Shown: positions 21,109-24,164, numbered from the stretch's first letter. The stretch is 64,000 nucleotides of DNA from Candidatus Latescibacterota bacterium (GCA_963662665.2 CAXXJS010000016.1:32001-96000); one strand, 5' to 3'. A program made the numbers and translations. Notes: a model not told the origin generated them from the sequence alone.

Positions 21109-21648
21109 TCAATTGCGCAATGTAATCCATTCGTTGTGCCCGAACAGGGAATATCCGACGGCAGCGAGGTTGACAGTCTCACCAACAAGGGGTCTGTAGT
21201 CCCTGCCGTTCAATGAAACCAACGAACGAACGTATACAGGCGCGTTTTCGAAACCACCTTGCCTGAGTTTCTCCGAAAGGTGCCTTGCGTATTGATTTAT
21301 CATATGCGGTCTGGTGGACATTTTGCGCCGCTGCCTGCGGGACAGTTCGGAGGTCGGCAGGACGACCAATTGACCGGTGTCCGGATCTCTGGTATGGAAC
21401 GATATCTCACGCGCACGCTTGTCCCGGAGTTTCATCCGCCAGGAAAAATTGTGTCCTTCGTCCGTCCATGCGACGTCGCCCTCTATGGCAAAATGGCGCA
21501 GCGGCAGAATCAACTGCGCGGCCGCGAACGCAGCCAGCAACAGGGCCTTCGCAGGGCGTCTGATCCCGTATCGTGTATCGTGTTTGCTGCCGGAATCCGA
21601 ATTCGCGGCGGCGTCAACCGGCCTGGTCAATACTCCATTCCAGTTCAT
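21109..21648 (-). CDS. Stand-alone C-terminal (lumenal) domain of a vitamin-K-dependent gamma-glutamyl carboxylase / HTTM-family protein; may be a remnant
   Basis: QLILPLRH..WTDEGHNFSWRMKLR, DPDTG, PHMINQYA, VSLNGR..LV, W: colinear with the GGCX C-terminal region; N-terminal HTTM helices absent. Confidence 0.78.
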   Translation of the reverse strand: MNWNGVLTRPVDAAANSDSGSKHDTRYGIRRPAKALLLAAFAAAQLILPLRHFAIEGDVAWTDEGHNFSWRMKLRDKRAREISFHTRDPDTGQLVVLPTSELSRRQRRKMSTRPHMINQYARHLSEKLRQGGFENAPVYVRSLVSLNGRDYRPLVGETVNLAAVGYSLFGHNEWITLRN

Positions 21649-21888
21649 TTTTCGAAGACGTTACCGAGGCCGGTCAGGCGCCCGTCACCACTACTCATCG
21701 AAATGGACTCGCATTCTGAAGAATTTCAGACCGTTGAAATCCGGGACGCCGTCCCTGGTACGTCCACTTCGCGGGTTGTAATCCCGATCAGTCTCAACGC
21801 AGGTCAGGACACTCGAGAGACGGACGGCGCCAGAAACGCGCAATGAAACTCGCAATCGAAAGAATCGCGCTAATGACGGATATGCCGG

Positions 21889-23430
21889 CTAAGGTTTGTT
21901 GAACGAAGCAGCGAATATCAAAAAGTCCTGGAAGTCGACGGTACCGTCACCATTGAGGTCGAATCGGGCATCGTCAGTACCGAAGGCACGTGCGAAACTT
22001 ATAAAGTCGCTGAAATCGACCGCGCCGTCCCCATTAAAATCTGACCGTTCAGGCGTTGGCGCGGGAGTACCGGTGGTTTGTTCGTCGTTATTCTCATCGC
22101 CCTCGTCGCCCTCATCGCCCTCATCATTCTCGTCGTCCTCATCGCCCTCGTCGCCCTCATCGCCCTCATCATTCTCGTCGTCCTCATCGCCCTCGTCGTT
22201 CTCGTCGCCCTCATCGCCCTCGTCATTCTCGTCGCCCTCATCGCTCTCGTCGCCCTCATCGCCCTCGTTCTCGTCGCCCACAACGCCCTCATCGTCCTCG
22301 TCACCCTCGTCGCCCTCGTCGCCTTCGTCGCCCTCGTCGTCCTCGTCGCCCTCATCACCCTCGTTACCCTCGTCGCCGTCGTTCTCGTCGCCCTCATCGC
22401 CCTCGTCGTTCTCGTCGCCCTCATCACCCTCATCGCCCTCATCGCCCTCGTCGTTCTCGTCGCCCTCATCACCCTCGTCGCCCTCGTCGCCGTCGTTCTC
22501 GTCGCCCTCATCACCCTCATCACCCTCGTCGCCCTCATCGCCCTCGTCGTTCTCATCGCCCTCGTCACCGTCGTTTTCGTCGCCCTCATCGCCCTCATCG
22601 TTCTCATCGCCCTCGTCGCCCTCATCGTTCTCGTCGCCCTCGTCGCCCTCATCGTTCTCGTCGTTCTCATCACCCTCATCGTTCTCGTCGTTCTCATCAC
22701 CCTCATCGTTCTCGTCGTTCTCATCACCCTCGTCACCCTCGTCGCCCTCATCGCCCTCGTCACCCTCATCGCCGTCGTTCTCATCGCCCTCATCGCCCTC
22801 GTCGCCCTCGTCGCCTTCGTCGTTCTCATCGCCCTCATCGCCCTCGTCGTTCTCGTCGCCTTCGTCGCCATCGTTTTCGTCGCCTTCGTCGCCCTCATCG
22901 TTCTCGTCGCCCTCGTCACCCTCGTCGTTCTCATCACCTTCGTCGCCCTCGTCGTCCTCGTCGCCCTCGTCGTTCTCATCGCCTTCATCACCCTCGTCGT
23001 TCTCATCGCCCTCATCACCCTCGTCGTTCTCATCGCCCTCGTCATTATCATCGTCGTCGTCATCATCGTCATCATCGTCGTCGTCATCGTCATCGTCATC
23101 ATCGTCGTCGTCATCGTCATCGTCGTCATCGTCGTCATCATCGTCGTCGTCATCGTCATCGTCGTCATCGTCGTCGTCATCGTCGTCATCGTCGTCATCG
23201 TCGTCATCGTCGTCGTCATCGTCATCGTCGTCATCGTCGTCGTCGTCACTGGAAGCACTGATTCCAAAGCCGGTACGTGAGTCGATGCTCCTTTCGCTTC
23301 TGAGGAAGGGCGAGGTCTGGTCATCCACCGGCGTGTCTTTTTCGCTGTGCCCGTAAATAGACGAAGGTCGACCCAAAGCCATCAGGATCACGATGCTCAC
23401 GACGGAAATAAAACGCCTCAGGTGTGTCAT
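21889..23430 (-). CDS. Secreted extremely acidic Asp/Glu repeat protein with C-terminal dockerin-like twin EF-hand domain
   Basis: Sec-type signal peptide; poly-Asp; (D-E-G/N)n; PT linker; DFNGDGAVDFSDF and DLNGDGTVDFQDF loops; GGAG RBS. Confidence 0.85.
   Translation of the reverse strand: MTHLRRFISVVSIVILMALGRPSSIYGHSEKDTPVDDQTSPFLRSERSIDSRTGFGISASSDDDDDDDDDDDDDDDDDDDDDDDDDDDDDDDDDDDDDDDDDDDDDDDDDDDDDDDDDDDDDDDDDDDNDEGDENDEGDEGDENDEGDEGDENDEGDEDDEGDEGDENDEGDEGDENDEGDEGDENDGDEGDENDEGDEGDENDEGDEGDEGDEGDENDGDEGDEGDEGDEGDEGDENDENDEGDENDENDEGDENDENDEGDEGDENDEGDEGDENDEGDEGDENDGDEGDENDEGDEGDEGDEGDEGDENDGDEGDEGDEGDENDEGDEGDEGDEGDENDEGDEGDENDGDEGNEGDEGDEDDEGDEGDEGDEGDEDDEGVVGDENEGDEGDESDEGDENDEGDEGDENDEGDEDDENDEGDEGDEGDEDDENDEGDEGDEGDENNDEQTTGTPAPTPERSDFNGDGAVDFSDFISFARAFGTDDARFDLNGDGTVDFQDFLIFAASFNKP
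22084..23043 (-). repeat. Degenerate 9-nt tandem repeat GAY-GAR-(GGY/AAC/GAC) encoding DEG/DEN/DED, with occasional 6-nt DG units
   Basis: Directly visible periodicity. Confidence 0.95.
23047..23247 (-). repeat. Mixed GAC/GAT trinucleotide tract encoding 67 consecutive Asp
   Basis: 201 nt of GTC/ATC triplets on the + strand. Confidence 0.95.
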
Positions 23431-23468
23431 CTCCGTTTCCCTACCTGTAAGTATAAAATACAGAAAGG

Positions 23469-24164
23469 CTATTTGCGCTTTTTCTGAGACAGGTTGAAGC
23501 TCACGATGATCCGATCGGCGGCCTTCCCCTCGGCCCTGGATCGATTCGGAGCCACGCTATGGTACAGCCAACTCGGGAAGATCAGCATTCTTCCGGCCAC
23601 GGGTTTGTATCGGACTTTCGTCCAGCAGATTCGTGGTCGTCTGGTGCCGGGGATGTATCTGACGGGATTCATCAGGTTCTGGGTGCGCGGATCGATGAAC
23701 TCGATTCGACCCGAATTCGTGGGCGCCTGGACGTAGTAGACGCCGCTCCAGATGCAGCCGGGGTGGATATGTGCCCGGTTCACTCCACCCGGTGGATTGA
23801 TGATCGACCACATCGTGCCGATGCTCAGTTGATAGGACCTGTGATAACCGAGTTCGCGGCACATCAGGTCCGAAGCCGCGTCGACGCATTGAACCAACTC
23901 CGTAAATATAACGTCCTTGTGCATATTGACGTGGCTGTGCCAACTCCCCAACTCCGGAAAGTTCGACTTGGGCACCCCTGCTTCGTCGCGTTCTCGTTCT
24001 GCGTAGATCGCCTTGATCACGTCGGCGTTCAGAAGCTCGCTGTCCGGTACTTCCAGAGAAAAAATGAGCGTCGGGAAATAGGGTTGCACCTTGAGCGCGT
24101 TTTCGGACAGACGAGCCGCCGGGCCGCAGTCCTCGGCGCCACGGTTCGGAGTGTCGCGCGTCAC
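23469..24164 (-). CDS. Putative 2OG-Fe(II) oxygenase, TIGR02466-like
   Basis: FPT start, WSIIN..HIHP..WSGVYYV, FIDPR, LIFPSWLYHSV, RIIVSFN. Confidence 0.88.
   Translation of the reverse strand: MTRDTPNRGAEDCGPAARLSENALKVQPYFPTLIFSLEVPDSELLNADVIKAIYAERERDEAGVPKSNFPELGSWHSHVNMHKDVIFTELVQCVDAASDLMCRELGYHRSYQLSIGTMWSIINPPGGVNRAHIHPGCIWSGVYYVQAPTNSGRIEFIDPRTQNLMNPVRYIPGTRRPRICWTKVRYKPVAGRMLIFPSWLYHSVAPNRSRAEGKAADRIIVSFNLSQKKRK

Follow-up and report, generated by a model that had tools for sequence, protein, structure and literature searches.

In a stretch of 64,000 nucleotides from a Candidatus Latescibacterota genome (GCA_963662665.2, CAXXJS010000016.1:32001-96000; hereafter the window, with positions counted from its first letter), three minus-strand open reading frames (ORFs) encode a putative Fe(II)/2-oxoglutarate (2OG) oxygenase (23469-24164, 231 residues), a strongly acidic repeat protein (21889-23430, 513 residues) and ORF3 (21109-21648, 179 residues), a short relative of HTTM-type proteins resembling vitamin K-dependent gamma-carboxylases (VKGC). 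Comparison across genomes supports the oxygenase and the acidic repeat protein as a real, conserved functional pair. The favoured explanation, to which somewhat better than even confidence is given, is a horizontally mobile cassette in which an exported polyanionic protein travels with an oxygenase resembling prolyl 4-hydroxylases (P4Hs) that modifies the repeat before export, ORF3 being a dead remnant. In this mechanism, the cytoplasmic Fe(II)/2OG enzyme would act on the repeat itself ahead of Sec export, with beta-hydroxylation of Asp or Asn at the first position of each triplet as the best guess, and the modified polyanion, held at the surface or released, would bind cations. An earlier note on this DNA had proposed that the acidic protein is modified by both an oxygenase and a carboxylase. 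The part that joins the oxygenase to the acidic protein stands and the part that expects carboxylation here does not: for this window, the oxygenase-repeat pair looks intact and the carboxylase dead.

Pairing of the oxygenase with the triplet repeat

Across 168 Candidatus Latescibacterota genomes (given G-labels below, with L-labels for individual loci; the window's own genome is G000), the oxygenase occurs in 15; four of these are among the 14 other genomes of the same genus and 10 among the 76 of a second family, with identities of 81-90%, and the copy in G165 is a fragment at a contig end. All 14 strong matches to the first 65 residues of the acidic protein adjoin an oxygenase gene, and the gene beside the oxygenase always starts with the same signal and pro-region. 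The C-terminal ends of these partners vary, comprising a dockerin, a type IX secretion system (T9SS) sorting domain or He_PIG. A DNA pattern for DEG-DEG-DEx-DE was found in 15 of the 168 genomes, always at this locus or on contigs broken in the repeat, and the reversed pattern, used as a control, matched one genome. Taken jointly, 14 genomes have both features, 152 have neither and two have one (G117 and G123, cut at contig ends). The relative G143, which is without the oxygenase, is also without x-E-y triplets.

The association extends well beyond the phylum. A survey of one genome per GTDB species yielded 79 oxygenase loci, of which 63, from at least eight phyla, have runs of at least four [DN]E[GDN] triplets within about 6 kb; at three further loci (L043, L047 and L067) a D/E-rich ORF is cut by the contig end. 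Together with the joint presence in the phylum, this bears out the suggestion of the earlier note that the oxygenase and the acidic protein belong together. Carriers include Binatota, Nitrospirota, Thermodesulfobacteriota, Acidobacteriota, Planctomycetota and Gamma- and Alphaproteobacteria; cultured Rhodobacteraceae and a Mesorhizobium are represented. Export routes differ: Latescibacterota proteins have a Sec leader; those of Acidobacteria and Nitrospirales and the partners at L048 and L098 have lipoboxes and are encoded directly upstream of the oxygenase; and Rhodobacteraceae proteins have no signal peptide and adjoin a PrtD-type ATP-binding cassette (ABC) transporter and HlyD (TIGR01843, above cut-off). 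The only feature common to the partners across phyla and export routes is the repeat, whose unit has D or N at position 1, E at position 2 and G, less often D, N or A, at position 3. In the Mesorhizobium partner, position 1 is N in 62 triplets and D in 61, and this interchangeability of D and N at position 1 speaks for the Asp/Asn position as the probable target.

The alphaproteobacterial cassettes (L072-L113, for example L083 5016-9843 and L085 2317-4224) add four genes: the PrtD-type type I secretion ABC transporter, the HlyD adaptor, a conserved HExxH protein of about 250 residues (27 loci) and a protein of about 290 residues (12 loci). At some of these loci a single protein combines the HExxH-type domain with an HlyC-like acyltransferase domain, and several of the acidic proteins have a short N-terminal region that ends in '...ISFGG' just before the repeat.

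The window's oxygenase matches TIGR02466 over residues 29-227 (profile positions 3-200 of 201; E=3.5e-58, 196.7 bits, cut-off 62.5) and PF13759 (2OG-FeII_Oxy_5; E=1.8e-22, 80 bits, cut-off 27), and it is the only gene above the Pfam cut-off for PF13759 in its genome (4.86 Mb in 66 contigs, 92% complete, 5.4% contamination). No match to AspH (PF05118) appeared in it at E≤0.01, where PF13759 and a sub-threshold PF13640 alone were reported, so its assignment to TIGR02466 rather than to the AspH family holds. The protein has no signal peptide. Its AlphaFold2 model (mean pLDDT 79.3) is beta-rich with a probable double-stranded beta-helix core; the top hits of a Foldseek search are 2OG oxygenases, and the nearest folds are the uncharacterised 3bvc and 2rg4, followed by PHD2 and bacterial and algal prolyl 4-hydroxylases, including the Pseudomonas enzyme that acts on EF-Tu and the Chlamydomonas P4H. 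All 30 homologs in an alignment share residues H132, H134, H202 and R218. The rough net charge of the cross-phylum oxygenase clade is +8 to +22, with two outliers at +2 and +4, which fits polyanion binding; five distant homologs range from -1 to -7; four of these lack a partner, and the fifth (L110) has one next to it. The TIGR02466 subfamily is abundant, with 1073 clusters at E≤1e-10. A complex prediction of the oxygenase with residues 121-180 of the acidic protein and Fe returned a score of 0.00, which is no answer and is used neither way.

The acidic protein contains 192 D, 106 E, 83 G and 35 N among its 513 residues. It begins with a hydrophobic, predicted Sec signal peptide (residues ~1-27, MTHLRRFISVVSIVILMALGRPSSIYG; 23350-23430), read from the sequence. 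Between this and the poly-Asp run lies a conserved 34-residue pro-region (residues 28-61, HSEKDTPVDDQTSPFLRSERSIDSRTGFGISASS; 23248-23349). The poly-Asp run of 67 residues (62-128; 23047-23247) leads into the [D/N]-E-[G/N/D] triplet region (129-450; 22081-23046), visible in the DNA as a period of 9/18/27, and a tail closes the protein. With E fixed at position 2, 101 of about 107 triplets read x-E-y (DEG 65, DEN 28, DED 5, NEG 2, DES 1). Over the first 65 residues, the proteins of 13 other Latescibacterota genomes share 63-79% identity with it; the pro-region is kept within the phylum with or without an HTTM gene, the acidic proteins found in other phyla lack it, and poly-Asp length among relatives ranges from 5 to 67. 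Six-frame translation of the 4.86-Mb genome found runs of at least four [DN]E[GDN] triplets in the acidic gene only.

Scanned alone, the C-terminal 79 residues match PF00404 (28.5 bits, cut-off 22.9), EF-hand_1 (30 bits) and the GC-type dockerin NF041540 (32 bits, cut-off 29), a domain that a whole-protein scan missed. The profile matches identify the tail as a predicted calcium-binding dockerin/EF-hand module, a dockerin type I/EF-hand pair with two DxNGDGxVDFxDF loops at 21913-22044. Matches of the repeat to 'Collagen' (PF01391) and to the NCBIfam Scl/Lcl models were rejected as periodicity artefacts: Gly occupies only 67 of 101 third positions, the others being N, D or S, and no stretch passes the collagen model alone. 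Over the repeat, each of the five remaining frames also contains long ORFs, such as 21896-23356 on the plus strand, which were likewise set aside as by-products of the 9-nt periodicity. They are Ser/Pro-, Arg/His-, Thr/Met- or Val/Leu-rich, and only the Asp/Glu frame links the signal peptide with the dockerin domain.

An HTTM gene and its remnant

ORF3 carries one recognizable domain, a match to the VKGC lumenal domain PF22777 over residues 34-176 (21121-21549; E=5.4e-40, 137.2 bits, cut-off 27.7). This is the single PF22777 match in its genome, where PF05090 (HTTM) matches neither ORF3 nor any other protein, and no match to ORF3 was found among 40 relatives of the same order. Longer database homologs, 50 among the matches listed, all combine PF05090 with PF22777, are mostly 440-470 residues long and are up to 69% identical to ORF3. 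In a profile of 471 positions built from these 50 full-length homologs, which also served for six-frame scans of loci, ORF3 covers positions 291-461, so that about 290 residues with the HTTM membrane domain are missing. What is left consists of the first 14 native residues (MNWNGVLTRPVDAA), one hydrophobic helix and the lumenal domain.

Relatives in the same genus explain this arrangement. N-terminal HTTM stubs of about 50-85 residues lie directly after the acidic genes of G008 and G003; the G003 stub begins MNWKGALTRQVD and ORF3 begins MNWNGVLTRPVD. At the nucleotide level, window positions 21633-21603 match codons 6-15 of the intact G143 gene and positions 21539-21111 match its 3' end. Because of these stubs and this match, ORF3 is read as the native HTTM start fused in frame to the last hydrophobic helix and the lumenal domain; judged from sequence, it is a dead, in-frame internal-deletion remnant of a full-length HTTM/VKGC-like gene. 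A first reading had taken ORF3 for an inserted foreign fragment, on the ground that in same-genus genomes the next gene follows the acidic gene with hardly anything in between, and it was rejected after HTTM pieces were found at the same position in relatives.

The consequences for catalysis follow from human GGCX, in which, in the account of PMC12647623, the membrane domain contains the catalytic Lys218 together with Asn159/His160, which bind Glu, and the lumenal domain forms a propeptide-binding clamp or cleft. The region equivalent to Lys218, Asn159/His160 and Asp263 is deleted in ORF3, and the part retained is, by analogy, the counterpart of the propeptide-binding clamp. ORF3 would thus be able at most to bind something, catalysis being impossible by this sequence comparison. 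The earlier note had described a carboxylase-like ORF without its catalytic N-terminal half; the membrane and catalytic region is indeed gone, and what remains is not a stand-alone domain, as the 14 native N-terminal residues are kept. No carboxylation is expected in this organism, given that ORF3 has no membrane or catalytic parts and that the genome has no HTTM match, and a gamma-carboxylase is not a working part of the system here.

Most carriers in the phylum have the gene in decay or have lost it. With the intact G104 protein as query, homologs occur in 26 of the 168 genomes, and a close clade spans nine of them (63-86% identical over the matched parts), all nine copies adjoining the acidic gene. 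It is intact in G104, G118, G123 and G143, where it follows the acidic gene after 15-43 bp; frameshifted in G103; disrupted, and upstream of the oxygenase, in G117; reduced to remnants, by three different decays within the window's genus, in G000, G003 and G008; and missing from the locus in G001, G012, G122, G125, G128, G139 and G144. The earlier note had looked for a full-length HTTM/GGCX gene beside an acidic repeat gene, and all four intact copies are so placed, that of G104 together with the oxygenase in a complete operon (L120: oxygenase 7189-7884, acidic gene 7912-9645, HTTM 9661-11073; the genes are spaced 27 and 15 bp apart). The oxygenase of G118 and G123 lies on a different contig or is missing from the assembly, and no oxygenase was found in G143, where the HTTM gene is intact.

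The G104 enzyme aligns with human GGCX at E=5e-44. On this alignment, against the residue list given in PMC12647623, it keeps the equivalents of Asn159, His160, Lys218, Trp223, Asp263, Phe286, Phe299 and Met401, with the motifs 'YNNHYY' and 'GVAKINADW' at the catalytic residues; the equivalent of Tyr395 is His. The neighbour of the G143 HTTM gene is a (DDDDDG)n protein with no x-E-y triplets and 7 Glu in 515 residues, so Glu gamma-carboxylation is disfavoured as the general link; should the HTTM enzyme act on these acidic proteins, its target could equally well be Asp or Glu. A specific link of HTTM to the poly-Asp run was considered and dropped, since G139 and G144, without HTTM, have runs of 42 and 40; the run in G103 is 7.

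Outside the phylum, HTTM is not a general partner of the pair. Six-frame profile scans of the 79 GTDB oxygenase loci found HTTM pieces at two, both from Latescibacterota (L041 and L047), none of 63 further loci with triplet runs had HTTM, and PF05090 was found in 0 of 5 non-Latescibacterota carrier genomes searched whole. HTTM relatives at 40-46% identity in Joint Genome Institute (JGI) metagenomes had an acidic ORF or oxygenase nearby at 0 of 8 loci. Among distant HTTM paralogs in the phylum, one of 14 loci, scanned over 1.5 kb on either side, has a (DDDDDG)n ORF: in G050 (L137 3234-3803), from another family of the phylum, a paralog 46% identical is followed by this ORF. On one metagenome contig (L162 984-6386), an HTTM/VKGC-like domain forms the C-terminal end of an 1800-residue ORF. 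By comparison of the loci, an ancestral Latescibacterota cassette with a full-length HTTM gene directly after the acidic gene is shown; the best reading of the carboxylase is an optional, lineage-specific addition that was lost in the window's organism.

The cassette in its genomic setting

The cassette appears to have moved recently between phyla. In a quick tree, 34 oxygenases from about eight phyla form one clade (support by the approximate likelihood ratio test, SH-aLRT, 99) with short branches. Oxygenases 67-83% identical to that of the window (L040-L071 and L098) come from at least eight phyla at branch lengths of 0.01-0.15; this mixing of many phyla at short branch lengths suggests recent cross-phylum horizontal transfer. 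Whether the acidic gene lies upstream or downstream follows the oxygenase clade.

Within the window, the variable cassette extends over 20627-24436, between a gene for a 634-residue protein and a GNAT gene, which are syntenic in same-genus genomes without the cassette. In G002, G013 and G014 the slot holds 0.6-1.5 kb of other DNA, namely an unrelated 355-residue ORF in G002 (L173 7168-8678) and 0.6-0.9 kb in G013 and G014. The 634-residue protein (18780-20684, minus strand) has a signal-like N-terminus and no Pfam or NCBIfam match, is conserved beside the cassette and is present in two copies in G008 (L009 9621-11747).

The ORF coordinates confirm the layout given in the earlier note of three co-oriented genes, with 38 bp (23431-23468) between the oxygenase stop and the acidic-gene start and 240 bp (21649-21888) between the acidic gene and ORF3. 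A consensus terminator scan reported no site in the 38-bp spacer. About 120 nt past the ORF3 stop lies a terminator-like GC hairpin followed by T6 (20960-20992, minus strand); a 46-nt segment containing it has a fold energy of -21.6 kcal/mol, and the hairpin is unlisted by the consensus scan. Overall, the promoter and terminator consensus scans gave no excess over shuffled sequence (2 vs 1.5 and 4 vs 2.8).

Contigs of three public runs from three studies match region 20600-22122 with 0-3 differences, and this recurrence of the same allele argues that the ORF3 arrangement is not an artefact of the present assembly. Because none of these short-read contigs spans the repeat, its exact length depends solely on the present assembly. 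Runs X1, X5 and X7 yielded many short, deeper contigs on the oxygenase gene (23452-24071) with 4-32 differences, which appear to be homologs that other organisms of these samples carry. RNA runs offered no transcription evidence: the runs shared 6-7% of words, and the soil metatranscriptome run X16 covered the repeat only. Its contigs match 22088-23079 at 90-95% likeness and, with the repeat alone covered at that likeness, probably come from similar repeat genes of other organisms.

Competing explanations and known systems

That the oxygenase would modify the repeat is suggested by the repeat as the sole shared feature of the partners, the hydroxylase-like fold, the charge and the precedent of SmaO discussed below. 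Several observations weigh on the other side. The candidate metal motif, H-x-H...H, departs from the usual H-x-D/E...H, and the reaction may thus be something other than a standard hydroxylation. The oxygenase family has no characterised member, its nearest structures, 3bvc and 2rg4, being annotated 'uncharacterized protein', and the reaction and target residue are therefore what we infer. Sixteen of the 79 loci have no triplet run, most of them distant homologs (<~55% identity) or short contigs, and at many Rhodobacteraceae loci the acidic gene lies 1-4 kb off, sometimes on the other strand. The kinetics are demanding as well: with a cytoplasmic enzyme, hundreds of sites on a Sec substrate would need modification ahead of export. 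As for ORF3, its frame is open over 179 codons and keeps the native start, so a residual non-catalytic role is possible.

Adjacency and co-occurrence do not tell which protein acts on which, and the pair could be linked without the acidic protein being the substrate: the enzyme might modify a small molecule, a lipid or lipopolysaccharide, or another protein, with the polyanion as an Fe or Ca buffer, a carrier or a co-exported partner. The oxygenase family has no known substrate, its H-x-H motif leaves the chemistry open, and the real modifiers in Rhodobacteraceae could be the HExxH protein, in some cases with its HlyC-like acyltransferase domain. This explanation is nonetheless unlikely, though to be taken seriously, as the repeat is all that the partners share, no third gene is conserved in most non-alphaproteobacterial loci and the nearest characterised folds are protein hydroxylases. 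A related scheme would treat the repeat protein as a precursor, in the manner of peptides made on ribosomes and modified after translation (RiPPs), that is modified and then cut into small hydroxy-Asp-rich, for example metal-chelating, peptides. Fe/2OG-dependent Asp hydroxylation of GG-leader precursors exported by ABC transporters is a precedent described in PMC12186529, and the alphaproteobacterial partners with '...ISFGG' before the repeat stand beside an ABC transporter, HlyD and the HExxH protein. Against it, the folded anchoring domains (dockerin, T9SS, He_PIG) in frame after the repeat of the Latescibacterota proteins favour an intact displayed protein, the ABC transporters tested match PrtD-type models of type I secretion and showed no peptidase domain, and the window's cassette has no protease gene; processing into peptides is improbable.

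A cassette in a variable slot, with an oxygenase tree that mixes eight phyla at short branches and so implies horizontal transfer, might also hold two genes that merely co-travel, the acidic protein being a fast-evolving, low-complexity surface protein with no biochemical link to the enzyme. Gene order, signal types and anchor types have been reshuffled repeatedly with the pairing kept, however, and the oxygenase loss in G143 accompanies loss of the x-E-y triplets, which makes mere co-travel quite improbable. The full model of the earlier note, in which the acidic protein is hydroxylated and its Glu gamma-carboxylated by ORF3 to give a Ca-binding or mineral-nucleating protein of gamma-carboxyglutamate (Gla) and hydroxy-Asp, draws on the four intact HTTM genes directly after acidic genes, the GGCX key-residue equivalents kept in G104 and one Glu per triplet. 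It fails on the absence from ORF3 of profile positions ~15-290, with the whole HTTM domain and those residues, on the lack of PF05090 in a 92%-complete genome, on three decays in one genus and absence at the locus in G001 and G012, and on the nearly Glu-free partner in G143. It is highly improbable, and catalysis by ORF3 is already refuted unless a trans-acting HTTM domain exists.

The favoured reading of a mobile pair with a dead carboxylase has a bolder form, put forward tentatively and with considerable doubt. It would be an unrecognised, spreading modification system in which a P4H-like oxygenase with an H-x-H iron site processively modifies hundreds of positions in giant [D/N]-E-[G/N/D] polyanions, to which Latescibacterota add a carboxylase homolog, producing an extreme Ca- or metal-binding surface polymer. 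If true, its range would run from marine Rhodobacteraceae to Latescibacterota, Acidobacteriota, Nitrospirota and others, and poly-Asp/Glu proteins would be the first candidate ribosomal protein substrates of a bacterial vitamin-K-carboxylase homolog, yielding beta-carboxy-Asp or Gla.

The oxygenase-repeat pairing appears undescribed. Judged by the listed hits, a full-text literature search found no functional account of TIGR02466/PF13759, the former being named for a cyanophage genome; 'HTTM domain' is rarely named, and no link to acidic proteins was found; and the matches listed held nothing relevant on acidic-repeat proteins with beta-hydroxyaspartate and 2OG. By analogy, the system would be of a known kind, a protein hydroxylase with a co-encoded candidate substrate. 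The new elements are an enzyme subfamily that is uncharacterised, a class of candidate substrate that has no precedent and, as a third partner in one phylum, a homolog of the vitamin-K carboxylase. A co-located candidate substrate makes the function of the abundant TIGR02466/PF13759 oxygenases experimentally tractable, and cultured carriers exist (Marinovum algicola, Pseudoponticoccus marisrubri, Mesorhizobium sp. and Shimia sp.). For bacterial homologs of the vitamin-K carboxylase, the Latescibacterota version supplies the first concrete candidate for a protein substrate. In bacteria that are marine or associated with hosts, polyanions 300-1000 residues long that leave the cell by three different routes would bear on cation binding, on surface charge and possibly on mineral control.

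Among known systems, the closest in family and fold are PDB 3BVC and 2RG4, Rhodobacteraceae proteins from structural genomics (E ~1e-15, template-modelling (TM) score 0.68-0.76); they are 26-28% identical to the window's oxygenase, and neither has an assigned function. The nearest characterised folds are the collagen/HIF prolyl 4-hydroxylases (PHD2, Pseudomonas P4H-EF-Tu and Chlamydomonas P4H; Foldseek E ~1e-7, TM 0.5). These too are protein hydroxylases, and collagen P4H acts on a triplet repeat; unlike them, the window's enzyme, at 13-15% identity, has H-x-H in place of H-x-D. The repeat differs from collagen in having no proline and, with its incomplete Gly at third positions, no collagen helix. 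Animal AspH and GGCX offer a parallel in arrangement, with a 2OG oxygenase and a vitamin-K-carboxylase homolog beside a secreted protein of Ca-binding type, D and N interchangeable at the putative target position as for AspH, and Lys218 and His160 kept in the HTTM enzymes of intact relatives as in GGCX. Unlike AspH, the oxygenase lacks a PF05118 match, and its fold is nearer that of prolyl hydroxylases; there is no substrate with a Gla domain or of EGF-like type, and the carboxylase is deleted here, with His for Tyr395 in the bacterial clade. MloH, a bacterial HTTM-family enzyme, is reported to carboxylate an Asp-derived residue (cited in PMC12186529; bioRxiv 10.64898/2026.08.19.745780). Such a target fits the Asp-only (DDDDDG)n partner of the intact G143 HTTM gene; the likeness is one of description, and the MloH substrate is a polyketide synthase-nonribosomal peptide synthetase (PKS-NRPS) intermediate rather than a ribosomal protein.

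The nearest functional precedent is SmaO, described in PMC12186529 as an Fe(II)/2OG Asp beta-hydroxylase acting on GD/DG motifs of the exported GG-leader RiPP precursor SmaA. By that account, the best HHpred hit of SmaO is Ofd1_CTDD, SmaO is not a TIGR02466 member, and PF13759 is its third hit, at 99.4% (Table S2). SmaO works with SmaX (DUF6817); a SmaX-type HD domain (PF20680) had no match in the window's genome, nor in any of 14 control genomes. SmaA, as described there, is a short peptide with two modified Asp, unlike the triplet polymers of 300-1000 residues. Like SmaO and SmaA, however, the window pairs an Fe/2OG oxygenase with a co-encoded, exported, Gly- and Asp-rich ribosomal candidate substrate, and, as in the SmaO targets, 'GD' occurs at every DEG-DEx junction of its repeat.

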